64,000 nucleotides of DNA from an uncultured virus (IMG/VR IMGVR_UViG_3300009068_003844) (lineage: Duplodnaviria; Heunggongvirae; Uroviricota; Caudoviricetes), in the IMG/VR virus record IMGVR_UViG_3300009068_003844; one strand, written 5' to 3'. The position numbers and the translations under genes are program-made. The notes under the pieces are model-generated. The model did no database searches. It saw only the letters and a program-made list of their open reading frames with translations, and was not told the DNA's origin. Positions within the stretch are counted from its first letter, which is position 1, and each line of letters begins with the position of its first letter. Shown piece after piece: positions 23,085 through 43,071 of this stretch.

Positions 23085-23361
23085 GGCCCAGTAGCTCAAT
23101 TGGATAAGAGCAACAGCCTTCGTGAAATAGGAGTGCTTAGAGAGAAATCTTTAATGTAGAATCGCTTAAATTCGGTGAAGGCTTAACTGCTAATACCGAG
23201 CCAAGCCTAAGCAATTAGGAAGGTGTAGAGACTTAACAGGCGACACCTAAAGTTGAAAGACAATGGTGAAGATAAAGTCCAGACCACAAACAGTAATGGT
23301 AGTGAAAACTATAGTGGTACCGCTAAGCTGTAGGTTCCAAGTTCGATCCTTGGCTGGGTCA
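23085..23361 (+). tRNA. tRNA-Arg(UCU) interrupted by a group I intron
   Basis: Exons 23085-23120 and 23323-23361 form a cloverleaf: GGCCCAG/CTGGGTC, ACAGC-CTTCTAA-GCTGT, T-loop TTCGATC. Confidence 0.9.
23121..23322 (+). ncRNA. Group I intron (202 nt) inserted after U34 of tRNA-Arg
   Basis: 5' exon ends in U, intron ends in G; core AAATTCGGTGAA, AATACCGAGC, GTAGAGACT, AAGATAAAGTCC. Confidence 0.9.
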
Positions 23362-23426
23362 TTTTGTTTTTTTGTTTTGTTTAGAAAAGTGCAAAGTATT
23401 TACTATTAATATTTTGTGCTAATTAT

Positions 23427-23567
23427 TCCGTGATAACTCAACGGTAGAGTGTTCGACTGTAAAAAGCCACTGAATTGAAGCTCAAAAAAGCTGGCAATTT
23501 ATGTTGGGTTCAATGCCCAAACAGTGGATTAATCGAATGGTTCTTGGTTCAAATCCAAGTCACGGAG
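23427..23567 (+). tRNA. tRNA-Asn(GUU) with a 69-nt insert in the anticodon
   Basis: TCCGTGA/TCACGGA acceptor, G73, D-arm ACTC/GAGT, stem TTCGA/TCGAA, T-arm CTTGG-TTCAAAT-CCAAG. Removing 23461-23529 restores CT-GTT-AA. Confidence 0.75.
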
Positions 23568-23606
23568 CTACAAGCTGGTTTGAATATAAAGAGCTACAAA
23601 CTTTGA

Positions 23607-24173
23607 TTAGTTTTTTCTATCGTGATAATCAACAACTTCTCTGCATAATTTAACAAACTCTTCTGAGCTTAAAGTATGTTTTGCTAAATTGACTTCCTTG
23701 AGAACAAGCTGACAGTTATTTAGAGTATTTTCTCCCCCCTTAGATCTTGGGATTATATGATCCAATTGATATGTTCTAGGTTTCATTAAATCAATTGGTT
23801 TTCCAGTTAATGAGCATGTTGGATTATCTCCAACCTTATCTAAAAAATCTTTAATTGTAAATTCCATGCCAGCATACTCCTTGTTAACTCTAGAGAATCC
23901 TTCTATCCTTATCTTCAGGTTTTTGTGCAATGTATGAATATGCCTATTCTTCGGAACAGGTTTGTAGTATTTATCATAAATAAAATTTTCAATCTTGCGA
24001 ATCAAAGGATGCTGTTTAGATCTGTTTGATTTACGTCTTTTGGCGTATTTTTCTTTTTGACCTTCACCACAATGATACGATATTGTTCCTTTTGAGCACT
24101 TGATCTCATCTTGGATTTTTTTATATGAATATCCCAATGCCCTTAATTCTAATATTTTATCTTTTACTTTCAT
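23607..24173 (-). CDS. Free-standing HNH endonuclease with N-terminal HTH
   Basis: LGYSYKKIQDEIKCSKGTISYH; LDHIIPRSKGGENTLNNCQLVLKEVNLAKH; TATAAATA upstream of ATG 24173. Confidence 0.85.
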   Translation of the reverse strand: MKVKDKILELRALGYSYKKIQDEIKCSKGTISYHCGEGQKEKYAKRRKSNRSKQHPLIRKIENFIYDKYYKPVPKNRHIHTLHKNLKIRIEGFSRVNKEYAGMEFTIKDFLDKVGDNPTCSLTGKPIDLMKPRTYQLDHIIPRSKGGENTLNNCQLVLKEVNLAKHTLSSEEFVKLCREVVDYHDRKN

Positions 24174-25969
24174 GACTTGAACCTTTAATATATTTATATA
24201 TATGCATTGAACCATAATTTTATAAATAAATTCAATCATGATGTAACTTTCTATTGACGAAACAAAAATTTCTGGTATGCTATTAGCACCCACTAACATT
24301 TTTCCAAGGAGGGAAAATGACACGATGCCTTTGTTTGATAGATGATAAATGGATTGAAAGACTTTCTCCAAAGTTTTCAGAAGAAGAAGAAAAAATCTTA
24401 GACGATTGCTCAAGTTCTAATGATGAGAATAGAACTAAGGTTATCAAAGACTTTAATGAAAGAGGATCTCGTCCTGCCTCTTTAGAAGATGTTAAAATAG
24501 CCCAAGAAGTCTACAGTAAGAATAAAGTAATTGGGGCAGAGTTAATCATTGCTAATATCATCCTCCCAGGTTTGCATGGAAGTATAAACTGTAAAGTTGG
24601 TAATGATTATAAAGTGATTAGGTTTTAATATAAGAAAAATTATGAAAACTCTAATAACAATAGAAGTTGAAAATGAAACAGGAAACCCTTCTATTGAGGA
24701 TATTAAATTGTTTGTCAATCAAATCATAGAAAGAGGATTCTTTGGCCCATTTGACATATACAATGTTCAATGAGCGGCATATCGCTAAGAGTTTTAAATG
24801 CAAACTCTAGTAAGAACTCTGAATCTTGAATATGATATTGTTGAGATTCATTATAATGAGTTTTTGAAAAATAAACCTTACTTGGTCAGAGTATTTAGTT
24901 ATAACAATACTGACCCCAGCGAAATAAGGCTGGACGAAAAAGAAGTAAAAAATTTATATCAAACTCTTAAAGAACACAACCTATTATGAACTTCAGAATA
25001 ACCAAAGAAATTCGTAATCATAAATACGACCATGATCCCAAGACCATTTATGGTATTAGGGATGCTGCTGGTGTTGATACAGACTTATCAGAGTGGAAAT
25101 TTATATACGGAGACAAGAAATGAACGAAAACGATAAATTACTTAAAGCAATTATTTTATTTATCACGATTATCATTATGATGTTGGCATTCATAATGACT
25201 TTTATTTCATACAAAATAAGTGAAGATGTAAAAAATATTAGATTGGATTTAGTTATGCTGAAGGGTGAAGTAAACTCTGAGATGGAAAAAAACAACCAAG
25301 GAGAAAAGAAATGAACAGAAGAAGTCTTATTAAATCTTTGTTGCCAACAATGGCTGGAATTTTAGTTTTTAAAAATTCATACGGTGCATATTTAAGAACT
25401 AAAGAACACCAGACAATATACAAAGGAAAAAATTTGTGTGTTATTTCTAAGTCTGAAATGCTAGAAAGAGCAAAAAAATTAAATATTTACATTCCATTTT
25501 GTAAGATGGATCATCATAAATCAAACATTATAGAAGAAATGAAATATTTTGTAGATCAATCACTGAGGTATAATTTTTACAATGATTTAGAAAAAAATAT
25601 TTATGGATGTTGTGAAGGAAGAAGATCAAAAAACGGCTCATTAGGGATATATTTTGCTGTAATTGCATCGCAATACGATTTTCTGCAAGATGATCGAACA
25701 CCGGCTTATTACTCGCAAGACCCTGGGTAGAAAAGTGACTAAATACAAAATTTGTAAATTTGTTGATGGTAACGGAAAAGAATGGTATCAAGTCAAGAAA
25801 AAGGGGTGGTTATTTTGGCGTTATTTGGATACATTTGAAAAAATTGGACTACGTTCTTATAGAGTTATTCTTAAACTTTCTAATGTAGAAGAAGCAAACA
25901 AATACATTGAAGGAGATAAATGGTTTGATAAATCAAATCAAATTAAAAAAGTAGAATGTTGGAATTATA

Positions 25970-26320
25970 ATGACTAAAAATCAACCTAAAACATGGTTCA
26001 TAGATTTTGATGGCACTCTTGTGACTCAAAAAAGCCACATGAGTTCAGAAGACTTTATTCTTTCAACTACAAAATCTTTCTTTGAAGAAATAGTAAAAGA
26101 AGAAGATTTTGTAATTATTACCACTGCACGAACTTGTGAAGACAAAGAAAGAATAGAAAAATTTCTTCAATATCACAACCTTAAATTTGATCTAATTGTT
26201 TGCGGAATTCCTACAGGCTCAAGAATTTTAATTAATGACAAAAAGCCAGACGGTACTTTAACTGCTTATGCTCATAATTTAGAAAGAGACAAGGGAATTG
26301 ATCTTTCCCTATTTATTTAA
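25970..26320 (+). CDS. HAD-superfamily hydrolase
   Basis: FIDFDGTL, IITTAR, RILINDK. Confidence 0.75.
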   Translation: MTKNQPKTWFIDFDGTLVTQKSHMSSEDFILSTTKSFFEEIVKEEDFVIITTARTCEDKERIEKFLQYHNLKFDLIVCGIPTGSRILINDKKPDGTLTAYAHNLERDKGIDLSLFI

Positions 26321-26989
26321 ATGATTGAATCATTTAAATATTTTTATATAATGATAATTGCTTACCTTTACATAGATTCTTGGGCAACTGCCTTTAGATT
26401 TAAAAAAATTTACAAAAGGCTTGAGAAATTAGAAAATGAAAATAGAATATAATGAAAACCCATTAGCAAGTAAAGTATTTCTTGACGATACTGAAAAACA
26501 GTTATTGTTTTGGAAATACAAATGGGACATGATTGGAGAAAGTGTTTCTTGGATTGAATTTGATATAAGAGAAAAAAAAGAAACTAATTTAGATAATATC
26601 CAAAATAAATTACGTGATATCTCTGAAAAATTTATCGAAACAAAATACGACGAAGAATCTATAAAATATTTTATAGAAGAACTACAAAGTAGTCATTGTG
26701 GAGATTGTGTTTATGAGCCTCAAACTTGTGCAAAATGCTATGCGGAAGAACATCTTGGAATAGATAGCACACCCAACTTAAAACATTGGGGAGGAACGGC
26801 ACGTAAGATCATGAGTGCATTTTCTAAGAACTCAACAATAGAACAGGCTATTGATATATTAAAAAATAAAAACTACGACTCAGATGAATATAAAAATTGG
26901 TCTAAAGAAACGGACATCGACAGGTGGAAGCAAGAAGATATTTGGGCTATTGAATACCTAGAATATTATAAAAAAGAGATATTAAAAAA

Positions 26990-27562
26990 ATGAAAATTAA
27001 ACCACTAAACAACATATTACAAGAGGTAAATAAAATGTTCAATCGCACTAGAATTATTAAAAGAATTTATCCCTCTGGATCTACTGGATATTTTATCCAA
27101 AAACAAAATCCATTATTTTTTTGGCTGTATAAAGATTGTCATTTCTATCCTATTACTCTTGATGAAGCTCAAAAAAATGAATATATATTTAAACCCTTTA
27201 AAAATAGGGTTGTAGAAGTTTATAAAAAAATCAAATTTAGAGTTGTCGAGCAGTACTACAGCAATGGAGAATTTCGTGGATTTTTTGTTCAACAAAAATA
27301 TCCTTTATTTTTCTGGTTGTGGAGTTTTGTTCAACAAAAAGATCCTTTATTTTTCTGGTTGTGGAGTTTTGTTCAACAAAAAGATCCTTTATTTTTCTGG
27401 TTGTGGAGAAACTGTCATGCTATTCGTTATGAAAATGCCGATGTTGCAAAAAATAATGTGACCTATTGGCATAATCGCTCAAAGGAAATTGTAAAAGAAC
27501 TTGCAGAAGCAAAGAAACTTTGTCATACTACCTATGAAGTTGTTTCTGATGTCAGACTATAA
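26990..27562 (+). CDS. Hypothetical protein with internal 14-aa tandem repeat
   Basis: FVQQK(Y/D)PLFFWLW x3. Confidence 0.6.
   Translation: MKIKPLNNILQEVNKMFNRTRIIKRIYPSGSTGYFIQKQNPLFFWLYKDCHFYPITLDEAQKNEYIFKPFKNRVVEVYKKIKFRVVEQYYSNGEFRGFFVQQKYPLFFWLWSFVQQKDPLFFWLWSFVQQKDPLFFWLWRNCHAIRYENADVAKNNVTYWHNRSKEIVKELAEAKKLCHTTYEVVSDVRL
27283..27408 (+). repeat. 3 x 42-bp tandem repeat
   Basis: TTTTGTTCAACAAAAA(T/G)ATCCTTTATTTTTCTGGTTGTGGAG, three near-identical copies. Confidence 0.95.
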
Positions 27563-27595
27563 ACGTATAACTTATAAATGAAATAGGAAATAAAA

Positions 27596-28195
27596 ATGAA
27601 AAATTTCAACGAATGGTTGGATAAAAATAAAAATAATCAGATGATTACACAGGAAATGAAAGATCATTTTGATAAACGAACAAAATACCATATAGATTTA
27701 GTAGGAAAATTTTGCAATAAAATTGCAGAGTATGATCCAAATAGGTTTTCTGAGCTAAAAGAACGAAAAAAGGTTCATGATGATAGTAAATTTGAAGAAC
27801 CAGAATATACTCCTTATCTTTTCATTTCTTGGCAATACAAGTGCAAAGATGATAATAAAGAATTTAAAGTGCCTCAAGAAATTTTAGATAAAATGTCAGA
27901 GGCTACTTTACATCATATAACAACCAATTCGCATCATCCTGAATATCATGGCCCAACAAAAACAGGGTTAATTAACAGAGAAAACCGTGATAAGCCACCC
28001 AAAGAAATAGTAGATGCAACAAAGATGCCAGACATTGATGTTGCAGAAATGTGTGCAGATTGGATGGCTATGTCAAAAGAAAAAGGTAGCAATCCCAAAG
28101 ATTGGGCAGATAAAAATGTTAATATAAGATGGAAGTTTACTGACAAGCAAAAAGATTTAATTTATGAAATTATTGAAAATAATTGGATTGAATAA
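27596..28195 (+). CDS. HD-like metal-dependent hydrolase (DUF5662-like)
   Basis: HIDLV, HDDSKF, HHITTNSHHPEY, EMCADW. Confidence 0.7.
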   Translation: MKNFNEWLDKNKNNQMITQEMKDHFDKRTKYHIDLVGKFCNKIAEYDPNRFSELKERKKVHDDSKFEEPEYTPYLFISWQYKCKDDNKEFKVPQEILDKMSEATLHHITTNSHHPEYHGPTKTGLINRENRDKPPKEIVDATKMPDIDVAEMCADWMAMSKEKGSNPKDWADKNVNIRWKFTDKQKDLIYEIIENNWIE

Positions 28196-28967
28196 AAAGT
28201 TTTAATTATGAATAAAGACGAAATTATTGAAGCGTTACATGAGATAATAAAAGCATACGGCGAAGATGAAGGATACATTCCAAAGAGAGTAGTAGACTTA
28301 TATAATAAGTATCATGTTCCTTGGGAGTTTGCTGAACAGTTGGATAAAAAATGAAAAAAATTGTATGGGGTTTTTTGTTAATATATATTGGGTTTTGTTT
28401 GTTTTGCTTGTTAACAAAACCAACAAATGTTGATTTTCCTCCAATTATGCCTATGTATGGAATGGAACTTGCGTTATTAATATCTTGGTTTTTTGGAATT
28501 TTTTGCATATTAGAGGGATGTAATCCCGAGGTTCATAATGATTTTGATGGTTTTGGATCTATCGTAGTTGCAGGACTATTTGCATCAATATTTACACTTC
28601 CAATAGTTTTGATGAATATAATTTGGGTTTTTGTATGGAGCAAACAATAAGAAGATCATTAAGATTTAACATTGGGCGAAAAAATGAAAAAATATCGAAT
28701 CATATAGTATCATTTTTGTTTTTAAGTTTTCCAGTAGTTTGTTTAGTTTGTGGAATAATGTCTTTGTTTGTTAATAATAAATACCCCATTTATTTTGCAC
28801 TATTTCCTATAGTTGAAGGAACAACATTCGTTTCAATATTGTATTTAATTTCTTTTTTGGAGAAAGGATAGTAACTAATGAAATATAAAATCTGTAAGTT
28901 TGTTGATGGCAACGGAAAAGAATTAAGTGAAACAATAGGCCTAAACACATTACTTTAGAGGAATAAC

Positions 28968-29876
28968 ATGGATGAAAAAATCAAAATCACCACAGAAGGT
29001 AAATCTGTGGTTGCTATTCATAAAAATAAAGTTATTCGCAAATGGGATACTTTTTTCTACTTTAGCACAAAACTAGTGCTTCAATCACTTTCTCGGCCTT
29101 GGCATGAAAAGCAATTAACTGAAGAAGAATTTAAATCTAAAAATCCTCTCTTTTCTTTTGTTGAAAAAGATGTTTTATCAAAAGTACATCGTGCCTACTT
29201 AATAAAAAATAATTACAGTTCTTTTAAAGAAGAATATGGAATAACCGCCTCTACCGCTAGAAAAATCATAAATTCAAAAATGAAGGAGATTTGGGTTGTA
29301 GACCCATATCTTTTTACAAAGTTTTGTTTTAATTTAAAAAGAAAACCAAGCGCCGATAAAGTTCATAGACTCAGTGAGACAGTAGATCTATTAAAGCAGG
29401 TTAAAATAAAAAATCATTTACCTTTGGTTTTTTATTTTGGAGTCAAAGAATCCGAACTACCTTCTTTATTTGGTGAAGATTCTTGGAAAGAAATTTCCAA
29501 AAACAGTGAGTATAGAAACCATGTTTTGTGCAAAAGAGTTTGTAATATTTCTGCTGACTCTTCTTTGCCGCAAAATAGGTTAGAGTATGCTAAAAGATTC
29601 AAAGAATTTAACAAAATAAAAAAAACCGGTGCCCTAGAAAAATTTTATTACGAAAGCAATTTTGAATTGATTTATATTGTTTGTAACATATTTAAAATAA
29701 AAGAAATAAAAGATATCTGTAGTTCAAAATGCTTTGGTTTGCCTCTATGGGGTCAAGTTAACTCTAGTGATCACTATAATTTATTTGTATGTATAAAAGA
29801 TTTCCTAGATCTAGCTAAGAAGCATAAATATAAATACGATATCAATTGGACGAGAGAACAATGGGAAAAACATTAA
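28968..29876 (+). CDS. Hypothetical protein
   Basis: 302-aa ORF with GAGG RBS. Confidence 0.65.
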   Translation: MDEKIKITTEGKSVVAIHKNKVIRKWDTFFYFSTKLVLQSLSRPWHEKQLTEEEFKSKNPLFSFVEKDVLSKVHRAYLIKNNYSSFKEEYGITASTARKIINSKMKEIWVVDPYLFTKFCFNLKRKPSADKVHRLSETVDLLKQVKIKNHLPLVFYFGVKESELPSLFGEDSWKEISKNSEYRNHVLCKRVCNISADSSLPQNRLEYAKRFKEFNKIKKTGALEKFYYESNFELIYIVCNIFKIKEIKDICSSKCFGLPLWGQVNSSDHYNLFVCIKDFLDLAKKHKYKYDINWTREQWEKH

Positions 29877-29889
29877 AAACCTCATAGAT

Positions 29890-30365: not shown

Positions 30366-30465
30366 GGTGAATGTAGCGTAGTGGTAGCGTGAGGGAAGTT
30401 CCGAACTGCGACAGCAGAGTAGGCAAACAAATGCCCTTGTGGTGGTTCGATTCCACCCATTCGCC
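30366..30465 (+). ncRNA. tRNA-like RNA (8-bp His-type acceptor) with an expanded non-canonical anticodon region
   Basis: GGTGAATG/CATTCGCC, D-arm GCGT-AGTGGTA-GCGT, GAGGG/CCCTT enclosing 38 nt, T-arm GGTGG-TTCGATT-CCACC; promoter TTTACA-16-TATACT directly upstream. Confidence 0.7.
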
Positions 30466-30484
30466 CTGGCCAAAGAAAAAAACA

Positions 30485-30733: not shown

Positions 30734-31612
30734 GTGAAAATGACTAGTTACTCAGAAAAATATCACCAGTTCATCTCAAACGTTACTTATGAGGATGTTG
30801 ATTGTTTCATTAAAAATGGAACTATGATTAATGGGGAAAAGCCCAACAATATTCAAAAGACAGCTTTGTTTTCAATTATTAAGACAGAACCATATTATGC
30901 TTACTGCTATGCTAGGGATGTAATTAAAGACCGGTGGATTGAAGTTGAAGAAATCATAAAGAATAGCCGTCCAGAATATATCCATCATTATGCCAAAGAT
31001 GTTATCAAGGGACGGTGGATTGAGTGCGAAGAGATTATCAAGAGTGATCCCCAGTATGCTTATCTTTATTCCAGAGATGTAATTAAAAATCGTTGGAATG
31101 AAGCAGAAGAGATTATTAAGACTGACCCATATTATGCCTATCTCTATGCTAGAGATATAATTAAAGATCGCTGGATTGAAGCAGAAAAAATTATTAAAAC
31201 TAGTCCTGCATATGTTTACTATTACACCAAAGATGTCCTAAAAGATAGATGGATTGAAGCTGAGAGGGTTTTAATCCACTATATGTATCTTTACGCCAAA
31301 GATATAATTAAAGGCAGATGGATCGAATCAGAAGGGATTATTAAAACTGATCCACGATATGCCTATTATTATGCTAGAGACGTAATCGAAGGTCGCTGGG
31401 TTGACGCAGAAGAAACCATAAAAACTAGTCCAGAGTATGCCTGTGGTTACGCTAAAGATGTAATTAAAGGAAGATGGATTGAAGCAGAAGAAGTCATCAA
31501 GACTAGTCCAGAATTTCTTTATCAATATGCAGTCGAAGTAATCAAAGGAAGATTATCAGAAGAACTTGAAAGTGTTTTTGAAACACTCGAGTTTCCTTCC
31601 GGTACGGTTTGA
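30734..31612 (+). CDS. Helical tandem-repeat protein (~25-aa repeats)
   Basis: About 9 repeats of PxYAYxYARDVIKxRWIEAEEIIKT. Confidence 0.8.
   Translation: MKMTSYSEKYHQFISNVTYEDVDCFIKNGTMINGEKPNNIQKTALFSIIKTEPYYAYCYARDVIKDRWIEVEEIIKNSRPEYIHHYAKDVIKGRWIECEEIIKSDPQYAYLYSRDVIKNRWNEAEEIIKTDPYYAYLYARDIIKDRWIEAEKIIKTSPAYVYYYTKDVLKDRWIEAERVLIHYMYLYAKDIIKGRWIESEGIIKTDPRYAYYYARDVIEGRWVDAEETIKTSPEYACGYAKDVIKGRWIEAEEVIKTSPEFLYQYAVEVIKGRLSEELESVFETLEFPSGTV
31591..31609 (+). promoter_or_regulatory. Phage motif copy GTTTCCTTCCGGTACGGTT
   Basis: At a gene end, before 31652. Confidence 0.7.
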
Positions 31613-32374: not shown

Positions 32375-33298
32375 ATGTCAAAGGAAAGTGTAACAAAGAA
32401 GAAGTGTCCCACTTGCGGCAAGGGCATTTCAAGCAAGAAGATTGCAGATAGCCTAATGCCAGATAGCCTGACAAGTCTTGGGACTGTTGCTAGGCTCAAT
32501 AAAGATCTCACTAATAAGATTAAGACCCTCACCAAGGATGAAGTGAGGTATATTGTTGATTACTATTATATGATTCAAGAGAATCGTAAGCGAAGCACCA
32601 ATCAGATCACCGCTTTTGGCAAGGATAAAGAGCCTCATGAACTCTTTAGTTTCTTGAACGATCAAACAGAAGTTCTTGAAACTCAAATCAAACGGGCTAT
32701 GGATCACTGGACTGATAGTTTTTTGATTGCAAAGATTTTGAAGGATAAGGTTTACGGAATCGGTCCTGTGATTACTGCTGGTCTTGTTGCTCATATTGAC
32801 ATCAATAAGGCAAAGACCGCTGGTGCTATTTGGCGTTATGCTGGTCTCGATCCCACAAGTAAGTGGGAAAAGGGTCAAAAGCGTCCCTGGAACGCCAGCC
32901 TTAAAACCCTGTGCTGGAAGGTCGGGCAGAGTTTCATGAAGTTCTCTGGTAAGGAGGAGTGCTTCTATGGTAAGCTTTACAAGACCCAGAAGGAGTTTCT
33001 TGTAAAAAAGAACCTTGAAGGCGGATTCAAGGAACTTGCTGATTCTGTCTTGAATTCAAAGAACTTCAAGAACAAGGAAGTTATCGCTAAGTATAAGAGT
33101 GGAATTCTGCCAGATGGTCATGTGGATGCTATGGCAAGGCGTTGGGTGGTTAAGTTGTTCCTGAGTAATGTCCATGAACTTTGGTGCAAGGTTGAAGGAA
33201 TTGATTGCCCCAAGCCTTATGTCATGGCTCATTTGGGACACACCCATCATATCATTCAGCCAAATCTTTTGGATATTGATGAGTATTTGAAGAAGTAG
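32375..33298 (+). CDS. tasA: TIGR-associated Nop-domain protein (TasA-like; IS110 C-terminal-like, no nuclease domain)
   Basis: Coiled-coil region, then YGIGPVITAGLVAHIDINKAKTAGAIWRYAGLDP, WNASLKTLCWKVGQSF, YGKLY, HVDAMARRWVVKLFL. No RuvC DEDD, HNH or IS110 catalytic SG motif seen. Dual-spacer array nearby. Confidence 0.8.
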   Translation: MSKESVTKKKCPTCGKGISSKKIADSLMPDSLTSLGTVARLNKDLTNKIKTLTKDEVRYIVDYYYMIQENRKRSTNQITAFGKDKEPHELFSFLNDQTEVLETQIKRAMDHWTDSFLIAKILKDKVYGIGPVITAGLVAHIDINKAKTAGAIWRYAGLDPTSKWEKGQKRPWNASLKTLCWKVGQSFMKFSGKEECFYGKLYKTQKEFLVKKNLEGGFKELADSVLNSKNFKNKEVIAKYKSGILPDGHVDAMARRWVVKLFLSNVHELWCKVEGIDCPKPYVMAHLGHTHHIIQPNLLDIDEYLKK

Positions 33299-35914: not shown

Positions 35915-35941
35915 ACGAACAGGGTGTCCATAACAAGTAAA

Positions 35942-37261
35942 ATGAGAACAATCAAAATTAATAATGGCAAGAAAACAGCAACTATACAAGTTAATGGTTT
36001 CACAACCAAAGAACTTATAAACCAAATACATTTAGCTGAAAAGAAGAAAAAAGAATCAAAAATTAAGCACTATCAATACTTGAAAAGTGTTAGTGAGTCT
36101 GAGGACAAGAAAAGTTTAATTTTTAATTTTAGCAACAAAACAAATGTTAAATATTCTCTGATTGATAATAAGTTCTATGACGCAGAGACAAATACTCTTA
36201 TTAAAAATCCTAAGTCATGTATAAAATTTGCATCTGGCAATCTTTCTGGATTGGCGAGAGATAAAGATATTTATAAATTGTGCAAAGAAGAATGGATTCA
36301 GTTATTCTTCATTATCACCAGCCGTGAAGATTACTATGTACCTGATAGGAGCGATCTTTTTAGTATTTTAAATAATCCTGTGATTATGGGGGATTTTGAA
36401 AAATTTGCAAAGTGGGACTTTTTACAAAAAAATAAAGAAAAATTCCACCATCTAGAATTCGCACAAATCTATTTTGATTATAATATTAAAACTATAAGTG
36501 ATTTTAAAAAGTATAGCTTGGATTACTATATTGAAAAATTAGATACAATGGTTGCTGAATATAGTAGTGTTCCGGCTGATTATATGAGATTAGTCGATTA
36601 TGCAACTCTGGAACGGTGGTGCGAGGTTAAAAATGTAGATGTGATAAAGTATGCAATTGACAACTATAATCGGTTTCCAGATATGCACGATGAATATTTT
36701 AATATCTTAATAAAGATGGGTTATGACAAATTTAAATTAACAGATTATATTTGCAGGGGGTTGCCTAATCAGGGAATTGAAGATATTGAAGATGCATTAT
36801 CAATTCTTCATGATTATGCAAAAATGAACGTTCAAATGAAAAATGATTTTGATAAGTATCCAAGATATCTTAAAACACTTCATGATATAACTAGCAAAAA
36901 TTATGAGGTCTTAAAAAGTAGAACTTTTAAAAATAGGTTCTCTAAAGTTTGCAAAACTTTTAAAAAATATGAATATAAAAATGAAAGGTATAGCGTAATA
37001 GCCCCAGTTAAACACGAGGATTTAATTCAAGAAGGAATAAAGCTAAATCATTGCGTTGCAAGCTATGACGAAGATATCGCTAATAAGAATTCTACTATTT
37101 TGTTTTTAAGGTTAAACTCTGAAATTCAAAAACCACTAGTAACAATTGAAATTAAAAATAACAAAGTTGTTCAAGCAAAAGGCCACTCTAATTCTAATCC
37201 AAAGAATGAAGAAAAGATTTTCTTAGAAGAATATAAAAATTACCTTAAAGGTGTAAAATGA
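35942..37261 (+). CDS. PcfJ-domain protein
   Basis: DLIQEGIKLNHCVASY, ILFLR, LVTIEI, VVQAKGHSN; start moved to ATG 35942, after the array. Confidence 0.8.
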   Translation: MRTIKINNGKKTATIQVNGFTTKELINQIHLAEKKKKESKIKHYQYLKSVSESEDKKSLIFNFSNKTNVKYSLIDNKFYDAETNTLIKNPKSCIKFASGNLSGLARDKDIYKLCKEEWIQLFFIITSREDYYVPDRSDLFSILNNPVIMGDFEKFAKWDFLQKNKEKFHHLEFAQIYFDYNIKTISDFKKYSLDYYIEKLDTMVAEYSSVPADYMRLVDYATLERWCEVKNVDVIKYAIDNYNRFPDMHDEYFNILIKMGYDKFKLTDYICRGLPNQGIEDIEDALSILHDYAKMNVQMKNDFDKYPRYLKTLHDITSKNYEVLKSRTFKNRFSKVCKTFKKYEYKNERYSVIAPVKHEDLIQEGIKLNHCVASYDEDIANKNSTILFLRLNSEIQKPLVTIEIKNNKVVQAKGHSNSNPKNEEKIFLEEYKNYLKGVK

Positions 37262-37335
37262 ATGATAGTTATGCAGAAAAGTATTAGAAATTCTACTTGA
37301 AAAAAGTTTAAAAGTGTGTTAAAGTGAAAAACCAA

Positions 37336-37354
37336 GTTTCCCTCCGGTACGGTT
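37336..37354 (+). promoter_or_regulatory. Phage motif copy GTTTCCCTCCGGTACGGTT upstream of tRNA-Leu
   Basis: Intergenic, 60 nt before the tRNA. Confidence 0.7.
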
Positions 37355-37413
37355 GGAGGGAGTGACGATTGCTGGTTGTTCTTTGAAAATTTATTTGGGT
37401 TTGGTTTTAAAAA

Positions 37414-37700
37414 GCCAAAGTGGCGAAATAGGCAGACGCAAGGGACTTGATATTAAATTGAGTGCCTAAAAGGAAACTTTTAGAGCAGAACTGCTCAAAT
37501 TCGGTGAAGGCTTAACTGCTAATACCGAGCCAAGCCTGAGAAATCAGGAAGGTGTAGAGACTTGACGGGCAGCACCTAAAACTGAGAAGTTATGGTGAAG
37601 GTAAAGTCCAGACTACAAACCGCAAGGGTAGTGAAAACTATAGTGGTAAGAAAATCCCTCGGGATAACATCCTGTGCGGGTTCGACCCCCGCCTTTGGCA
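37414..37700 (+). tRNA. tRNA-Leu(UAA) interrupted by a group I intron
   Basis: Exons 37414-37448 and 37651-37700: GCCAAAG/CTTTGGC, AGGGA-CTTAAAA-TCCCT, long variable arm, T-loop TTCGACC. Confidence 0.92.
37449..37650 (+). ncRNA. Group I intron (202 nt) after U34 of tRNA-Leu
   Basis: U at 5' exon end, terminal G; core nearly identical to the tRNA-Arg intron. Confidence 0.9.
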
Positions 37701-37701
37701 T

Positions 37702-38160
37702 TTATTTTTTCTTGTTTTTACCACGAAAGTTTGGTGTCAAACCGTGGCAGTTGTAACAAAGAATTTCTAAATTAGAAAGCTCATTGTTTGAAGAATCTCC
37801 ATCTTTATGGTGAAGTTCTATTGGAATTAAATTCCCAAGCCAATGAGTATTCTTGCAATTCATGCATTTATGTTCAAAGATTTTTTCTCTAATTAACTTC
37901 TTTTTTAGTTTGAAACTTTGAGTGTTACTTCCTTTAACAAGATATGATTCAATTGGTTTTTTTGGTGGTAGAACAAACCCTTTAGACCATCCGTGACCCT
38001 TAAAGTGAGAAGTGTCTAAATTAAACTTCTTAATATATGCTTTTATTGTGGCGTAATTACCACCGGCAGCAACTAATTTTAATTTAAAAAGAACTTGTCT
38101 CACTGATGTTGAACTTTCAACAAGTTCTTTTAAAGTTTCATGTGTGTATGTGTATTTCAT
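37702..38160 (-). CDS. Free-standing HNH endonuclease
   Basis: KCMNC, IELHHKDGDSSNNELSNLEILCYNCH; stop codon abuts the tRNA-Leu 3' end. Confidence 0.88.
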   Translation of the reverse strand: MKYTYTHETLKELVESSTSVRQVLFKLKLVAAGGNYATIKAYIKKFNLDTSHFKGHGWSKGFVLPPKKPIESYLVKGSNTQSFKLKKKLIREKIFEHKCMNCKNTHWLGNLIPIELHHKDGDSSNNELSNLEILCYNCHGLTPNFRGKNKKK

Positions 38161-38226
38161 AAATTTAAAACTCTTTATACTATATATATAGTAGAGTTTT
38201 AAATTTTTATTCAACTAAAGGAAAAC

Positions 38227-38442
38227 ATGAAAAAAATCGTCAATAACAACAACAATCTAAAAATAAAAAAGATCGTTGGTTCCACCCTTTGCTTTTTGAT
38301 TTTATCTTCTGCTGTTATTGCAATTGCAGGTATTTGGGGTGGATTGACAGGAGAAATTGTTTGGCAATGTCTCCTTACATTTGGTGTTGTAGCAGGATCA
38401 TCAATTGCTTTGGGTGCTGCTACTGAAGTCTACTTTAAATAA
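38227..38442 (+). CDS. Small two-TM membrane protein
   Basis: Two hydrophobic segments. Confidence 0.6.
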   Translation: MKKIVNNNNNLKIKKIVGSTLCFLILSSAVIAIAGIWGGLTGEIVWQCLLTFGVVAGSSIALGAATEVYFK

Positions 38443-38446
38443 TATA

Positions 38447-38528
38447 GGTTGATTTCCCGAGTGGTCAAAGGGGTTTGACTGTAAATCAAATGCTATTAGC
38501 TTCGCAGGTTCGAATCCTGCATCAACCA
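38447..38528 (+). tRNA. tRNA-Tyr(GUA)
   Basis: GGTTGAT/ATCAACC, TTTGA-CTGTAAA-TCAAA, long variable arm, GCAGG-TTCGAAT-CCTGC. Confidence 0.93.
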
Positions 38529-39170
38529 GTTTATTTTTCCTCTGCCCTCTCCCTAGTGCCTCTCTCTCCCCACCGTTGGCCCTCTCCCGCCCGTTTCCCG
38601 CTTCTCCTTCCACAGACTCCATGAGCAGTCACAGTCACCTTTTTAAGAAGCTCTTTTAATGGAAAAAATGAAACCTATTGAAGTTGGATTTGATGGAAGT
38701 TTTCAGATATGGTCAAAACACTTACCATCTAAAACCATAGACATAAGACTGGCAGAGTCGCCAACATCTGAAAACTTTTCAGAATCACCGAATCCAAATT
38801 TTCAATTACCTAATACATTTTTATGGATCAGATCAGAAGATCCAAGGTTATTATACAGAAACAAGGATGGCACACTTTATAATGTTAATTTTGAATCTAT
38901 AGCAAAATCTGTTTGAATCAACCACTAAACAAGAAAGGACTTTTTGTTGTGAGTTCTGTTAAAGCCAGTAAGTCAGCAAGGGATTGGGTTGTTGCAACAT
39001 ATTGTGATTATGGTCAAGAGAATAAAAAGAGAGTTCTCAGACTTAGTTATAGTCTAAAATCAAGTAAGGGTGCTTGGGATAAACTCAAGAATTATTTCAG
39101 CAAGAATGGTTATCGTTGTTGGCAAGAGGATAAAAAGGGAAATATCCTAAACGACAGTAGGTCATAGACC

Positions 39171-39845
39171 ATGGAACATTTACAACAAAAATATTGTTTT
39201 TCATTATTAAAAAAATTCAATATTCCTATTGAAACAATAATAGATGTGGGAGTATTTATTGACACTCCTGTTTTGAGAAGTTTTTTCTCAGATAAAACTC
39301 ACATCTTATTTGAACCAATAGAAGAATTTCGGCCAATTATAGAAAATACATACAGAGATATTCAACACAAACTTTATAGTTTTCCTTTATATGAAGAAGA
39401 CTGTGAAGTGAAAATGAAAATTAGTCTTGATGAAAATAAAAAAATTAAACATTCAAGAATAACAAAAGAAGATTGTAAAAATTTTCGTGTAATGCAGGCT
39501 AAAAAGCTAGATTCAGTACTAAAAGACACCGATTTTAAAAAACCTTACTTTCTAAAATTAGATGTCGATGATGCCGAATTAGAAATATTAAAAGGTGCAG
39601 TTGAAACTCTAAAATACTGTTCTGTTATACAGATAGAGATGCACCCGAGAGATTTTCTGGAACGTTCTAATTTTATAGAACAACATGGTTTTAAATTGTT
39701 TGACATAGTGGATAATATTTACTATGAGGGACAATTAAGACAATTCGATATGTTTTTTGTAAAAAGAGATATTTTGATAGAATGTAATAGAGATTTCGAG
39801 AATATGAAACTATTTGATCCAAATTTGTGGAAATCATCTAGATGA
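39171..39845 (+). CDS. FkbM-family SAM methyltransferase
   Basis: IIDVGV, ILFEP, KKLDS, FLKLDVDDAELEILKGA. Confidence 0.8.
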   Translation: MEHLQQKYCFSLLKKFNIPIETIIDVGVFIDTPVLRSFFSDKTHILFEPIEEFRPIIENTYRDIQHKLYSFPLYEEDCEVKMKISLDENKKIKHSRITKEDCKNFRVMQAKKLDSVLKDTDFKKPYFLKLDVDDAELEILKGAVETLKYCSVIQIEMHPRDFLERSNFIEQHGFKLFDIVDNIYYEGQLRQFDMFFVKRDILIECNRDFENMKLFDPNLWKSSR

Positions 39846-40792
39846 TGTAGTATAATCCATCAAGGAAGATGGAGATAGTAATATGAAGTACGGAAACTGT
39901 CTTTTTGGTGCATTTGTTTTATTGTGGACTGAAAGAAAAAACAATCCAAGATTTATAGTTAGATGCAGACCAGAGACCAGAATCCCGCACTTTATGGTAA
40001 TTACCAAAGACTGTCTTTATCATTATAAAATGGTTAAAGATATTTTGCCTTGGCCATTATGCTATATTGTTTTCTTGGGAGAGTTTCAAAAACTTGAGCA
40101 CGATAAAGAATACTTATTTCAAAAAAGAATATGAAGTTTCTTGCGTATTCATTATTGAAAAAACAAACTTTAAAGGAATACAATAATGTCGTGGAATTAC
40201 CGTGTCATTAAAAAAGCAACCAAGATTCCTGGGGGAGGAATTGATATTACTTATACTGTGCATGATGTATATCATGATGAAAATCTAGACATTGTAAACA
40301 TTGGTAAAATATCACTTCCCGTGTCAGATAATGTCGAAGGATTAAAGCACAACTTGAAGAAAATGCTAGAGGCTTGTAAAAAGTCAGTTATTGACTATAA
40401 TACTGGGGAAGAAGTGAATTAACACTCACCTTTGAGTTGATCGCCAAGGGTAACGTCCTTGACCTCTGTTTCCCGTATTTAGGGTTTCAACGTCAGATAA
40501 TGGGGACGTTTTTAATATAAAGTTAAAGGTAGGAATATGAAAAAATATAAAAGTATTGAAGTTCACGAAGATACATTTTGCGATATCTGTGGGAACTCAT
40601 GCAAAGATAAATTGGGTAACTATGAAAGTGCATCCCTAAGTGCAGATTGGGGATATTCTAGTGGTAAAGATGGAACCAGATATGACATTGATCTATGCGA
40701 AAAATGTTTTGATGAAATAATAGAGTTCTTGAAAAGCAAGACATCTCCATCTATTTTTGCATAATTGAACCAACCTTTAATTTGAGGAAAAG

Positions 40793-41140
40793 ATGCCTTA
40801 CATATCAGAAGAAAATAGAAAGCTATTAGACAATTCAATCAGCACTATGGTTATGGCCTTGAAAAGAACCGTAGATGATGGTAATATATTTAGTAAAGAA
40901 CCATTAACTAATGAAGAAGTATTAAAACTTCTTGGAAATATAAACTATTGTTTCTCTAGAGTAGTTTCTAATGTGATGGGAGATGTCTCTTATACTAAAG
41001 TCGCCATGATCACCGGTGTATTAGACAATATAAAGCAAGAGTTTTATAGACGAGTAGCCGAAGATTATGAAGATCTAAAAATCAAGGAGAATGGAGACAT
41101 CCCTGAATATGAACGATATACTAACAGAAAAGATAAGTGA
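40793..41140 (+). CDS. Conserved phage hypothetical protein
   Basis: MPYI...GNINY...GVLDNIKQEFYRRVAEDYEDLKIKENGDI. Confidence 0.65.
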   Translation: MPYISEENRKLLDNSISTMVMALKRTVDDGNIFSKEPLTNEEVLKLLGNINYCFSRVVSNVMGDVSYTKVAMITGVLDNIKQEFYRRVAEDYEDLKIKENGDIPEYERYTNRKDK

Positions 41141-41430
41141 AAAGCCAGTCAGGATGATTGAAAAGGCTTGCTATTTCAATCAAATGAGGTCAGATGGAGA
41201 CACTTGGCGTATTCATGGCGTTGTGGATGGAACGGAATTGATGCCTAGTCGCCCAATCGGTTTCGATAAAGATAAAAATATATTCGAAACCAAGAACACA
41301 ATTTATAAGGTTGTGTCTTGGGGAACTATGACCAAGTGCATTGATGAAGAATTCTGGAAGCAAGTGGAACAGGACATTAAAGAGAGTAGGCAGCGAATTA
41401 ATAGTTACCAAAATTTAAAAAGGTTCAGTC

Positions 41431-42084
41431 TTGATCAAGATCATTAAAGAAATTGTTTCAAAAGAAACTCATTGCTATGTTGCCGTAAGCATGGGTGTCG
41501 ATAGCGTATCTTCTTTATTTTGGTTGAGAAGCAAGGGATACAACATTACTCCATTGCACTTTAATCATAATCTAAGAGAACAGAACCATGCCATGGAAAA
41601 TAAGTTCCATGAACTTTGTGGTAAATTAGGATTAAAGGGCATTGTGGGTAAGGGCCAAAATTTAAAAACAGAAAAAGATTGCAGGGAGGCCCGCTTAAAT
41701 TTTTATAAAGAGGTTGTGGATTACGAAGGTTATGTAATCACTGCTCATCATCTCAATGATTATGTGGAAAGCTATTTAATTAATTGTTTTCGTGGACAAC
41801 CCAATCACAATCCTTTTGAATTAATTAGCGAGTTCGATGGATTCAAGATCATCCATCCTTTTCTATTAAGTAAGAAAAAAGATTTTCAAGAGTACGTTGA
41901 CAGGAATAAATGGAATTGCTATACTGTGGAGGACGAAACCAATAAGGTTGTCAAAGGAAGCAGAAGAAATTGGATTCGTCAAACAATCATTCCAGAAATG
42001 AAAAAACAAAAGTTAAGTCTAGAAAAATATTGTTCAAGGAGAATTGAAAAAAACTTGAAGAATAAGACGGTAATTCTAGACTAG
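41431..42084 (+). CDS. tilS: tRNA(Ile)-lysidine synthetase-like, PP-loop domain only
   Basis: VAVSMGVDS, LHFNHNLR, EKDCREARLNF, ITAHHLNDYVESYL, SRRNWIRQTIIP; CAU tRNA starts 17 nt downstream. Confidence 0.85.
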   Translation: MIKIIKEIVSKETHCYVAVSMGVDSVSSLFWLRSKGYNITPLHFNHNLREQNHAMENKFHELCGKLGLKGIVGKGQNLKTEKDCREARLNFYKEVVDYEGYVITAHHLNDYVESYLINCFRGQPNHNPFELISEFDGFKIIHPFLLSKKKDFQEYVDRNKWNCYTVEDETNKVVKGSRRNWIRQTIIPEMKKQKLSLEKYCSRRIEKNLKNKTVILD

Positions 42085-42100
42085 CACAGTTGGTTAATTT

Positions 42101-42364
42101 CCGAAGGTAGCAAAACGGTTAATGCAACAAACTCATGAATTTTCGTGCCATACGATTGGAAACTTCGTATGGGATGTCGTCAAATTCGGTGAAACCTAAA
42201 TGCGTGAGCATATGGCAATGCCGAGCGAAGCCCGTAAGGGAACGTGTAGAGACTTAACGGCGACCACCTAAATCGTAAGATATGGTGAAGACAAAGTCCA
42301 AGGAGTGGTGAAAATCACACAAACTTGAATTTGTAGACTGTGGGTTCGAATCCCACCCTTCGGA
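42101..42364 (+). tRNA. tRNA(CAU), probably Ile2, interrupted by a group I intron
   Basis: Exons 42101-42136 and 42328-42364: CCGAAGG/CCTTCGG, ACAAA-CTCATAA-TTTGT, GTGGG-TTCGAAT-CCCAC. Ile2 inferred from adjacent tilS. Confidence 0.85.
42137..42327 (+). ncRNA. Compact group I intron (191 nt) after U36
   Basis: CAT^ exon end, terminal G; core AAATTCGGTGAA, AATGCCGAGC, GTAGAGACT, AAGACAAAGTCC. Confidence 0.88.
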
Positions 42365-42368
42365 CGTA

Positions 42369-42410
42369 ACACGAGGCTGCTTGACAATATCAAGCAGCCT
42401 CGTGTCTTTT
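42369..42410. terminator. Perfect 16-bp hairpin between the tRNA and the convergent HNH gene
   Basis: ACACGAGGCTGCTTGA-CAATA-TCAAGCAGCCTCGTGT. Confidence 0.8.
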
Positions 42411-43071
42411 AATAGCTCTTAAGCCATTTTCTCACTGCATTATCTGATACACCATATTTTTTGCCTACCTTTACAAAATTCATTTCAGACAAGTCTTTCT
42501 CAAGTTGTTCTTTGGAGGGCCGCTCTACTCTTCTAGAGTTTAAGCGATAACATTTATCGGAACAAAATTTTCTTTTGTGTTTATCGGGTTGATATTCTAC
42601 GCCGCATCGCTCGCAATTCATGGGTTTAAGAAGGTGCTGATTTACTTCGGTTTGATTGAATTGAACGAAATCATCCATTATTTTATTTGCATTTTCGGCC
42701 TCAAATTGTGGATGATGAATTTCCATATGACAATTCATGCACACCAAATCACACTTCTCCGCCTCCAGAACTAAAGACTTCCAAGACATATTTGAACATG
42801 CTCTAGAGTCAAGACCGTGTGATTTTTTCTTTGGATCTCTGTGATGAAAGGCCATGGCTGCATAGTTCTTTTTGTATCCACATACCTTACACGACATTCC
42901 CTTCATCTTCATTAATTGCATTTTTTTTGAAACGCCCCGTCTGTGCTGATTTTTGTAATTTTGATGTTTTGAATTACTTGATTTTAGTACGCATTCAGTA
43001 GAGCAAAACTTTCTTCTTGTTCCTTTAAGAGCTCGTCCACAAGAAGGACATAAATTATGATTTGATTTCAT
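42409..43071 (-). CDS. Free-standing HNH-like endonuclease with zinc-binding motifs and C-terminal HTH
   Basis: CKVCGY, AFHHRDP, EAEKCDLVCMNCHMEIH, two FCS..C motifs, VGKKYGVSDNAVRKW. Confidence 0.8.
   Translation of the reverse strand: MKSNHNLCPSCGRALKGTRRKFCSTECVLKSSNSKHQNYKNQHRRGVSKKMQLMKMKGMSCKVCGYKKNYAAMAFHHRDPKKKSHGLDSRACSNMSWKSLVLEAEKCDLVCMNCHMEIHHPQFEAENANKIMDDFVQFNQTEVNQHLLKPMNCERCGVEYQPDKHKRKFCSDKCYRLNSRRVERPSKEQLEKDLSEMNFVKVGKKYGVSDNAVRKWLKSY

Follow-up and report, generated by a model that had tools for sequence, protein, structure and literature searches.

Interrupted tRNA genes and HNH genes in the window

The window, a stretch of 64,000 nucleotides, belongs to a 251-kb lake phage record in which four tRNA genes have group I introns and five of the eight HNH genes abut tRNA genes. 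Among the 275 ORFs of the record, 10 lie at most 100 nt from a tRNA, and they include these five HNH genes (hypergeometric, 1e-6); the adjacency of HNH and tRNA genes is not due to chance. Three minus-strand HNH ORFs are found in the window (Table 1), where the preliminary description had placed them, with 38, 1 and 43 nt between the tRNA genes and their stops. As that description also held, their proteins differ, and HNH1, HNH2 and HNH3 share no BLASTP similarity. Outside the window, tRNA-Gln has the fourth group I intron and a convergent HNH gene, and tRNA-Lys is intron-less yet abutted by a convergent HNH gene. The three remaining HNH genes have no tRNA nearby, one of them being related at 35% to the enzymes of the Leu and Gln loci. 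A free-standing nuclease is found beside an ORF-less intron at the Leu, CAU and Gln loci, and not at Arg, Asn or Lys.

Table 1 Positions of the tRNA genes, inserts and neighbouring genes in the window
Feature	Position	Strand	Observations
tRNA-Arg(UCU), split by group I intron	23084..23362	+	ARAGORN with introns, RF00028, neighbour table; no adjacent HNH
Group I intron in tRNA-Arg(UCU)	23121..23322	+	202 nt, after U34, ORF-less; RF00028 59.3 bits
tRNA-Asn(GUU), actual partner of HNH1	23427..23568	+	ARAGORN; closest viral HNH1 homologues abut tRNA-Asn(GUU)
Anticodon-loop insert of tRNA-Asn	23461..23529	+	69 nt; not group I (no Rfam match); fold z -2.9
HNH1	23607..24173	-	188 aa; N-terminal HTH-like part and HNH; convergent on tRNA-Asn
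tRNA-Gly(UCC)	30367..30466	+	Insert of ~27 nt, boundaries uncertain; no HNH neighbour (ARAGORN, neighbour table)
tRNA-Leu(UAA), split by group I intron	37414..37700	+	Spliced exons with full conserved D-loop/anticodon sequence; ARAGORN
Group I intron in tRNA-Leu(UAA)	37449..37650	+	202 nt, after U34 (classical Leu position), ORF-less; RF00028 50.8 bits, P1 fold
HNH2	37702..38160	-	152 aa; N-terminal helical part and CxxC...HH..G...N...LCxNCH nuclease; convergent; family tied to tRNA-Leu(UAA)
tRNA-Tyr(GUA)	38447..38528	+	Neighbour table
PP-loop ATPase, probably TilS-like (putative name)	41431..42084	+	Pfam ATP_bind_3 E 7e-26; directly upstream of CAU tRNA
tRNA-CAU (Ile2 or elongator Met), split by group I intron	42101..42365	+	RF00028, ARAGORN
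Group I intron in tRNA-CAU	42137..42327	+	191 nt, after U36, ORF-less; RF00028 59.2 bits
Perfect 16-bp hairpin between CAU tRNA and HNH3 stop	42369..42405	.	Fold z -10.7; likely a two-way terminator
HNH3	42409..43071	-	220 aa; Cys-rich N-terminus, CxxC...FHH...CxNCH nuclease, second Cys cluster; convergent

Some automatic anticodon labels were wrong and anticodons were read by hand (L104/L319 = Leu, L075 = Ile(UAU), L090 = CAU). The relaxed ARAGORN output of 139 calls was mostly false: a tRNA-SeC call at the fourth intron was read instead as tRNA-Gln(UUG), and a tRNA-Ser call near the HNH gene at genome position 32604 disappeared once the default score was used. The TilS-like ATPase directly upstream of the CAU tRNA suggests that the latter is tRNA-Ile2. 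tRNA-Tyr is intron-less and has no HNH neighbour, as initially noted.

The inserts of the Arg, Leu, CAU and Gln genes exceed the Rfam RF00028 cut-off of 50 bits (68.6 bits for Gln) and are group I tRNA introns, predicted to be self-splicing. The first three are preceded by U, end in G and could form a P1 helix across the 5' splice site, and their excision gives back a 7-nt anticodon loop. The earlier remark that they have no ORF holds: at 191-202 nt, they are too short to hold a nuclease gene. The Arg intron shares 80% identity with the Leu intron and about 91% with that of Gln, whose identity to the CAU intron, like that of the other two, is 60-65%. The tRNA-Asn insert (69 nt) and the tRNA-Gly insert (27 nt) lack a group I core with terminal G, have no match to RF00028 and were ruled out as group I introns. 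The Asn insert folds into a closing stem and two hairpins, one with a T-loop-like sequence, and is tRNA-like, with no anticodon arm; no clear bulge-helix-bulge is evident in the fold. Neither RtcB nor a T4-type RNA ligase was found in the record (~50% complete), the control for the second search likewise giving no match.

HNH1 scores above the Pfam cut-off for HNH and HNH_4, and its residues D138, H139, N153 and N162 are invariant among 10 aligned relatives. HNH2 matches HNH_3 below the cut-off, its motif being invariant among relatives; its Gln-linked relative has a weak PF01844 match, and no solved relative of HNH2 was found (best E 0.13). HNH3, which has a helical (HTH-like) C-terminus, has no Pfam match and no significant fold match; its model gives weak fold matches, with HNH/His-Me nucleases at the top (best E 0.15), and its putative HNH assignment is the least certain because it rests on the motif and these matches. 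No window nuclease has a GIY-YIG Pfam match, and Pfam, which is weak on these families, recovered among the 67 ORFs beside tRNAs only the one HNH gene already counted.

The tRNA-Leu(UAA) nuclease family and its candidate site

The family of HNH2 was sampled as the 80 best viral and the 80 best bacterial homologues, ranked by similarity only. In this sample, 67 viral and 70 bacterial homologues are located at tRNA-Leu(UAA): inside its intron (27 viral, 57 bacterial), beside the intron (10 and 1) or beside an intron-less allele (30 and 12). The tree has weak support near HNH2, and orientations and intron entries are scattered among the loci. Seen from the tRNA genes, an HNH is adjacent or internal in 9 of 27 intron-bearing viral tRNA-Leu(UAA) genes and absent from the other 18. 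Canonical intron-less viral genes have a Leu-family HNH in 0 of 52 cases, a control that required a canonical anticodon stem and so left variant alleles out; a scan unbiased for this stem found an HNH at 2 of 84 intron-less genes.

A site profile was built from the 82 exon junctions of nuclease-bearing introns, which themselves reach a median of 41.5 bits (leave-one-out). Alleles with an intron and a free nuclease score 37.6 bits (n = 8) and nuclease-free intron-less alleles 34.9 bits, with 57 of 82 viral ones at 30 bits or more. Intron-less alleles accompanied by a free nuclease score 8.6 bits, and only one of 26 viral ones, at 39 bits, reaches 30 (p = 2e-10). In the three resolved pairs with close nucleases, the intron-bearing alleles score 37.6, 37.6 and 27.8 bits versus 14.6, 13.4 and -5.7 for the intron-less ones. 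The spliced allele of the phage scores 44.3 bits; its record contains no uninterrupted Leu site above 5 bits, and a second, intron-less UAA tRNA scores -35.

Judged by this profile, intron-less alleles beside the nuclease no longer carry the conserved D-loop/anticodon sequence, and the nuclease and an intact Leu(UAA) site appear nearly mutually exclusive. Since the nuclease family is intron-encoded in many genomes and the site is almost never uninterrupted beside the nuclease, the pattern suggests that the Leu nuclease targets the uninterrupted tRNA-Leu(UAA) gene, its own copy being protected by the intron here and by mutation elsewhere. This self-immunity signature names a candidate site of ~28 bp. 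The pair would fit collaborative homing well, and the case for the intron as a shield appears strong at this locus. Collaborative homing has been described for only a handful of phage protein genes, and its predicted next step, in which the nuclease moves into the intron, has been argued from these examples; in the Leu(UAA) family, the free, intron-adjacent and intron-encoded states each recur many times. The Leu target is a statistical profile and may partly mirror lineage, as phages whose tRNA-Leu genes are unusual may likewise be rich in nucleases.

Optional partnerships at the Asn, CAU and related loci

The preliminary description proposed three independent partnerships (Arg/Asn, Leu and CAU), in each of which the intron shields its own locus. 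A convergent HNH gene does lie at three of the four group I intron tRNAs of the record, and, within the same loci, 13 of 42 viral intron tRNAs have HNH neighbours versus 7 of 127 plain ones (p = 6e-5). The layout stands for Leu and CAU. Nevertheless, HNH1 abuts tRNA-Asn, and the Arg intron is 244 nt from it, behind that gene; HNH1 was rejected as its partner, and the Arg intron has no nuclease partner. The three best viral HNH1 homologues (62, 61 and 50%) abut tRNA-Asn(GUU). Among the 11 full-length viral homologues, four abut tRNA-Asn, three other tRNAs and four no tRNA; an alignment scan yielded one further full-length homologue, along with 79 matches that were weak or partial. HNH1 also lies behind tRNA-Asn in relatives that lack the insert. 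It is likely that HNH1 is aimed at anticodon-region DNA of the tRNA-Asn gene; a shielding role of the Asn insert is speculative.

HNH3 falls within a clade of 48 rows (support 95) whose members are most often partnered with CAU and include one that is intron-encoded. Over 80 loci, CAU-family nucleases lie beside intron-less CAU genes in 22 cases, beside an intron in one and inside an intron in one. The CAU genes give no exclusion signal, GA..TC being present in 4 of 24 HNH-adjacent versus 18 of 73 other genes, and the spliced CAU arm of the phage is not of the common type. HNH3 is likely aimed at anticodon-region DNA of the CAU tRNA gene, and the intron is a plausible shield at CAU and Gln. 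The early idea of anticodon-region targeting is retained in graded form, being supported by inference for Leu and likely for the Asn and CAU nucleases.

Relatives were compared through individual loci. In the related phage G001, introns interrupt the Leu, Lys and CAU genes and an insert the Asn gene, all without an HNH of their own; this insert (65 nt) is homologous to the 69-nt one, and the tRNA-Asn body around it is a different one. In run X6, a relative retains the 3' end of HNH1 along with the Asn insert, as partners would. In the contigs of four DNA runs, no allele is cleanly free of the nuclease or of the intron, and a joint that bypasses HNH1 has only 20 letters on one side. HNH presence varies by gain and loss among related phages. 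Introns and nucleases are in part independent in both directions, as seen in the 30 of 80 viral Leu-family nucleases beside intron-less genes and the 18 HNH-less genes among the 27 intron-bearing ones. Together with G001, the partnerless Arg intron, the 22 CAU-family loci and the HNH beside intron-less tRNA-Lys, these observations largely refute an obligate rule, and three strict partnerships are an unlikely explanation of the window.

Probable homing nucleases with optional shields, and known systems

The gene layout, the linkage of families to anticodons and the near exclusion for Leu(UAA) are observed, and the HNH genes are probably tRNA-specific free-standing homing nucleases with optional intron shields. 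Each would act on a single type of tRNA gene. During mixed infection, the cognate tRNA gene of the other phage, if uninterrupted, would be nicked or cut by the enzyme around the D-loop/anticodon, and recombination repair would then transfer the donor's version of the locus, with its tRNA allele, its intron or insert and the neighbouring nuclease gene, to the recipient; the donor itself would have to be without an intact site. Cleavage, its exact position, splicing and homing are predicted steps. As for free-standing homing endonucleases, the HNH genes are optional, patchy among relatives and adjoin a conserved target gene. The shielding role does not extend to the Arg intron or to the Lys gene, which has no intron.

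The HNH-type enzymes F-TflI, F-TflII as well as F-TflIV are known from phage T5. They are located in its tRNA cluster, and SegB of T4 cuts tRNA genes of related phages (PMC2330249). Both resemble the present genes as free-standing homing nucleases in phage tRNA regions. SegB, a GIY-YIG enzyme, reads a T-loop motif with no isotype preference or tie to introns in the accounts given (PMC2330249, PMC13096335), and free-standing enzymes often cut at a distance from their own gene (PMC2988022). The window nucleases could likewise recognise a feature common to tRNAs, such as the T-loop, or else a distant gene, tRNA loci being safe harbours and introns accumulating, without shielding, in recombination-prone loci. 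Relatives of the Lys-associated enzyme, which sit by Arg, CAU and Lys genes, and the three HNH genes without a tRNA neighbour would agree with this. Yet each family here tracks an anticodon, and a T-loop cutter would not be expected to be tied to one, to lie inside an anticodon intron, as at 84 of 160 loci, or to accompany loss of D-loop/anticodon sequence, whereas it is an interrupted or altered anticodon region that accompanies the Leu family. Such general recognition seems improbable.

Homing with optional shields finds a close parallel in F-CphI of cyanophage S-PM2, which is blocked by an ORF-less psbA group I intron, as described for collaborative homing (PMC6083498). F-CphI is of the EndoVII type and targets a protein gene; here the HNH families are different, the target would be a tRNA gene, several loci are present in one genome, the partnership is optional and cleavage is predicted from sequence. 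The endonuclease of the tRNA-fMet intron is reportedly I-Ssp6803I, with a PD-(D/E)XK fold. This cyanobacterial enzyme (cited in PMC3984707) has another fold and tRNA and is intron-encoded and chromosomal, whereas the window genes are free-standing and viral. For phages, the same 2014 review states that protein genes were the sole known location of group I introns (PMC3984707). Bacterial tRNA group I introns, with 21 insertion types reported, are of the same kind and occupy, as here, the classical positions (Leu after U34, Ile2 after U36); those above ~400 nt may hold protein genes, and the main text of this survey of cellular genomes names no nuclease family (bioRxiv 10.1101/2020.01.27.920355). 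HNH genes also lie beside tRNA genes in horizontally moved arrays of mycobacteria and cyanobacteria, which they are proposed to spread (PMC6582537, PMC8421152); unlike here, the sections on these arrays describe no cognate anticodon, intron link or immunity pattern.

Lak megaphages have tRNA introns, one possibly encoding a tRNA (PMC6784885). These short, unexplained anticodon-loop inserts include a tRNA-like one, as in tRNA-Asn here; the passages on them describe no nuclease link, and the Asn insert differs in having no anticodon arm. A tentative and on balance doubtful extension, taken as one joint claim, is that large phages carry an anticodon-specific HNH panel and shield their own tRNA genes by group I introns, site mutations and tRNA-like inserts, the 69-nt Asn element being a non-ribozyme protective intron (removal route unspecified), and that the Leu enzyme also cuts host tRNA-Leu(UAA) genes, with phages thus acting as reservoir and vector both for the classical tRNA-Leu(UAA) intron and for the nuclease-bearing version of it found in bacterial chromosomes.

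Phage competition could also be affected by small nucleases directed at a conserved tRNA gene. They might be kept for cutting intron-less tRNA genes of competitors or hosts, or for amplifying phage tRNA genes against tRNA-cleaving defences, with homing as a side effect, which would be compatible with homing nucleases bearing optional shields. A high-scoring site in the 57 of 82 nuclease-free viral genes, and its definition by exons of 57 bacterial chromosomal loci, imply that targets are common, and SegB is reported to drive tRNA gene amplification against Septu defence (PMC13096335). Nevertheless, the gain and loss among related phages and the scattered orientations and intron entries resemble selfish turnover, and benefit as the main cause is quite improbable. 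Finally, the HNH genes could be inactive relics left after homing fixation or after exit of the nuclease from an intron, as the nuclease-free introns of viral Leu loci would allow. A joint that skips the HNH3 interior in one relative, compatible with divergence or deletion, points the same way. Relics are nonetheless highly improbable, given that the frames are intact, that metal-binding and catalytic-type residues are invariant and that HNH3 has full-length relatives at 62-79% identity.

HNH genes and interrupted tRNA genes of the virus record

The virus record containing the window (G000; 251 kb, linear and about 50% complete according to CheckV) occurs in freshwater DNA runs and contains eight HNH genes. 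Five of them abut tRNA genes, all convergently: those for Leu, CAU and Gln, which bear group I introns, that for Asn, which bears a short insert, and an intron-less Lys gene. These five are found among only 10 tRNA-adjacent ORFs out of 275 (chance probability 1e-6), and this adjacency is not due to chance. The three HNH genes of the preliminary description are present in the window (HNH1, HNH2 and HNH3), and their products do differ, no relatedness among them being detected by BLASTP. HNH1 exceeds the Pfam cut-offs and HNH2 falls below its cut-off; HNH3 has no Pfam match and is assigned to the class from its motif and weak fold matches, with HNH nucleases leading. The neighbour table also agrees that the intron-less tRNA-Tyr has no HNH partner, and the same holds in the record for the intron-bearing Arg gene and for the Gly, Thr, Glu and second UAA tRNA genes. 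Three pairs of intron-bearing tRNA and HNH genes had been proposed (Arg/Asn, Leu and CAU): the last two hold as gene layouts, while HNH1 adjoins tRNA-Asn, whose insert is not group I, and the Arg intron is unpartnered. A fourth pair lies outside the window, where a convergent 227-aa HNH protein, 35% identical to HNH2, is encoded by a gene whose end overlaps tRNA-Gln by 25 nt. The Lys-linked HNH has relatives beside tRNA genes for Arg(UCU) and for CAU. Identity among the introns of the Arg, Leu and Gln genes is 80-91%, which points to a single intron lineage at the same position in three different anticodon loops.

A TATATA[AT] motif, possibly a phage promoter, lies at most 60 nt upstream of the start in 5/7 HNH genes checked (including HNH1, HNH2, HNH3 and the Gln-linked gene) versus 44/275 ORFs. 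The window also encodes a protein with a weak IS110-type transposase match (E 5e-4, just under the cut-off) and a protein made of repeats of about 25 residues, for which no credible family was found.

Features of the record and of related loci (introns and inserts from ARAGORN with introns and Rfam)
Feature	Location	Description
HNH1	window 23607-24173 (-)	beside tRNA-Asn
HNH2	window 37702-38160 (-)	beside tRNA-Leu(UAA)
HNH3	window 42409-43071 (-)	beside tRNA-CAU
tRNA-Arg(UCU) group I intron	window 23121-23322	202 nt, after U34
Group I intron within tRNA-Leu(UAA)	window 37449-37650	202 nt, after U34
tRNA-CAU group I intron	window	191 nt, after U36
tRNA-Gln(UUG) and HNH	G000:C1:143622-144554 (L001:3622-4554)	group I intron (within genome 144281-144554), 202 nt, after U34
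tRNA-Asn(GUU) insert	window 23461-23529	69 nt, not group I
tRNA-Gly(UCC) insert		about 27 nt, not group I
Lys-linked HNH	G000:C1:160810-161455 (L002)	203 aa, other family; convergent, overlaps intron-less tRNA-Lys(UUU) by 40 nt
HNH genes without tRNA neighbour	G000:C1:32604-33332, 158128-158595, 111271-111633	
Second tRNA call with anticodon UAA	G000:C1:155187-155267	intron-less, unusual body; Leu target profile score of -35 bits
Anticodon-loop inserts like a tRNA without anticodon arm	window 23461-23529; G001:C1:105789-105926; L330, L477, L570	closing stem and T-arm
PP-loop protein gene	window 41431-42084	product probably TilS-like
IS110-type match	window 32375-33298	307 aa
Repeat protein	window 30734-31612	292 aa

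The Leu(UAA) nuclease family and its predicted target

The relatives of HNH2 were studied through its best 80 viral and best 80 bacterial homologues, ranked by similarity. Among the bacterial ones, 57 lie inside the intron of tRNA-Leu(UAA), one beside an intron-bearing and 12 beside an intron-less gene of that type, the other three classes holding 2, 6 and 2; at the uncalled loci of the family, tRNA-Leu(UAA) was found at the match in 5/5. Since the family is encoded inside this intron, and since intron-encoded nucleases usually cut close to the insertion site of their own intron (PMC2988022), its target is most likely the uninterrupted tRNA-Leu(UAA) gene. Free, intron-adjacent and intron-encoded states interleave on the family tree, whose deep forks are weak. 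The closest viral relatives of HNH2 (55-57% identical) show the same layout in contigs with almost no other protein in common with this phage, as expected of a mobile cassette. A weapon benefiting the phage seems quite improbable as the main role of the nucleases.

Intron-encoded Leu-family nucleases (L271-L350, L431-L510) occupy one of two positions: 16 are in the 5' part of the intron in sense orientation, and 47 are in the P5/P6 region (41 antisense, 6 sense), 19 being unplaced. These two positions suggest that they entered the intron several times independently.

An enzyme cutting the uninterrupted gene is not expected to coexist with an intact site beside its own gene. A target motif set in advance from intron-bearing exons was present at 69/82 junctions with the nuclease inside the intron, at 5/8 with an intron and a free nuclease, in 39/82 nuclease-free intron-less viral genes, and in none of the 38 intron-less genes beside a nuclease (0/26 viral; p 1e-6; one more gene unparsed). 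Scored against a profile made from these 82 junctions, the first three classes had medians of 41.5, 37.6 and 34.9 bits and viral intron-less alleles beside a nuclease one of 8.6 bits, at least 30 bits being reached by 1/26 of the latter versus 57/82 nuclease-free genes (p 2e-10). Where close nucleases could be paired, the intron and intron-less alleles scored 37.6/14.6, 37.6/13.4 and 27.8/-5.7 bits. Leu nuclease and intact site are thus nearly mutually exclusive, a correlation from which lineage effects are only partly removed. That the HNH genes are mere relics appears highly improbable. The spliced allele of the phage scores 44.3 bits and a profile scan of its record found no uninterrupted site above 5 bits, so that the intron appears to be its sole visible shield.

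These patterns are probably best explained by tRNA-specific homing. The HNH enzyme would nick or cut the uninterrupted tRNA gene of a rival, and repair off the donor would transfer the tRNA allele, the intron and the adjoining gene; the donor would be protected by intron, mutation or, possibly, a short insert, and recombination would now and then move the nuclease gene into the intron. The Leu pair may be likened to F-CphI and the psbA intron (PMC6083498), cutting by the Leu enzyme being predicted from sequence, and the intron-less loci resemble intronless homing. HNH genes close to tRNA arrays were already known (PMC6582537, PMC8421152). SegB-like action on a general tRNA feature or a distant target seems unlikely here. 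Membership in the SegB family was rejected, as there is no GIY-YIG domain and the Leu family is tied to one anticodon (PMC2330249, PMC13096335). The value of the Leu(UAA) family lies in the visibility of every stage of the intron-nuclease association and in a named, testable site.

Introns and HNH genes in other viral loci

In viruses, a scan for intron cores recovered more than 120 loci, of which 80 had complete flanks. After removal of duplicates and of genes less than 500 nt from a locus end, an HNH gene was found within 100 nt of 13/42 intron-bearing tRNAs versus 7/127 plain tRNAs of the same loci (p 6e-5), although the HNH profiles were iterated on ORFs including those of intron loci, a bias in favour of the latter. 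For Leu(UAA) only, the figures are 9/27 intron-bearing viral genes and, among canonical intron-less ones, 0/52 with a Leu-family and 1/52 with any HNH; a scan fixing only loop and T-arm gave 2/84 and 4/84 (500 nt of flank in 56/84 genes). Pfam, insensitive here, added nothing further on 67 neighbouring ORFs. An HNH gene is lacking at two thirds of the intron loci. An obligate partnership of three introns with three nucleases is improbable. On the whole, the observation in the preliminary description is partly confirmed and its interpretation partly supported. The 13 HNH genes lie upstream (5), downstream on the same strand (4), convergently (3) or inside (1), which makes the convergent arrangement a trait of this phage and no general rule.

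The viral tRNA group I introns (L032-L111) interrupt Leu, Lys, Arg, Glu, Asn, Thr, Ser, Ile and CAU genes, the other loci of that scan apparently being introns in protein genes. In a 2014 review, phage group I introns were known in protein genes only (PMC3984707). For bacterial tRNA introns, 21 types have been catalogued, the long ones possibly containing genes (bioRxiv 10.1101/2020.01.27.920355); ORFs of this kind may be listed in the tables and supplements of that preprint. A literature search mostly confined to non-subscription journals returned no report of phage tRNA genes with group I introns and no HNH family linked to the tRNA-Leu(UAA) intron. Short non-group-I inserts, some perhaps decayed genes or false calls, have an HNH neighbour at 8/30 tRNA calls (L049, L353, L372, L380, L420, L477, L530, L332).

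Partners of the Asn and CAU enzymes

HNH1 was rejected as partner of the Arg intron, its best viral homologues adjoining tRNA-Asn(GUU). The top two (62 and 61%) are convergent on insert-free genes of this type, a third (50%) directly follows one and another (35%) is convergent on one; the 11 full-length homologues have Asn (4), other tRNAs (3) or no tRNA (4) as neighbour. By this homology, the partner of HNH1 is tRNA-Asn. A GA..TC stem occurs in the spliced Asn allele of the phage and is absent from four intron-less Asn genes adjacent to HNH1 relatives, but since just 16/34 other Asn genes have it, this absence is a hint. The Asn insert folds like a tRNA without anticodon arm (fold z -2.9). 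The related phage G001 has the insert and lacks the nuclease; a relative in the DNA run X6 keeps the insert and the 3' end of HNH1, with the acceptor stem replaced. The insert is conserved and the surrounding tRNA body varies. A tRNA-like intron has been reported in Lak phages (PMC6784885).

HNH3 belongs to a 48-row clade (support 95 in a quick tree of 117 columns) in which CAU is the commonest partner. At 27-51% identity, the best 80 metagenomic homologues are all distant. Intron-less CAU genes are the neighbours of 22, one flanks an intron-bearing CAU gene and one lies inside an intron, 31 being beside other tRNAs, 21 with no tRNA called and 4 uncalled. Allele comparison gave no immunity signal for CAU genes. 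In G001, the CAU gene and intron are 88% identical, with no HNH3 behind. A PP-loop protein gene lies directly upstream of tRNA-CAU, a homologue in G001 being 12 kb from the matching tRNA; together with the intron position after U36, this location suggests that tRNA-CAU is Ile2 (bioRxiv 10.1101/2020.01.27.920355).
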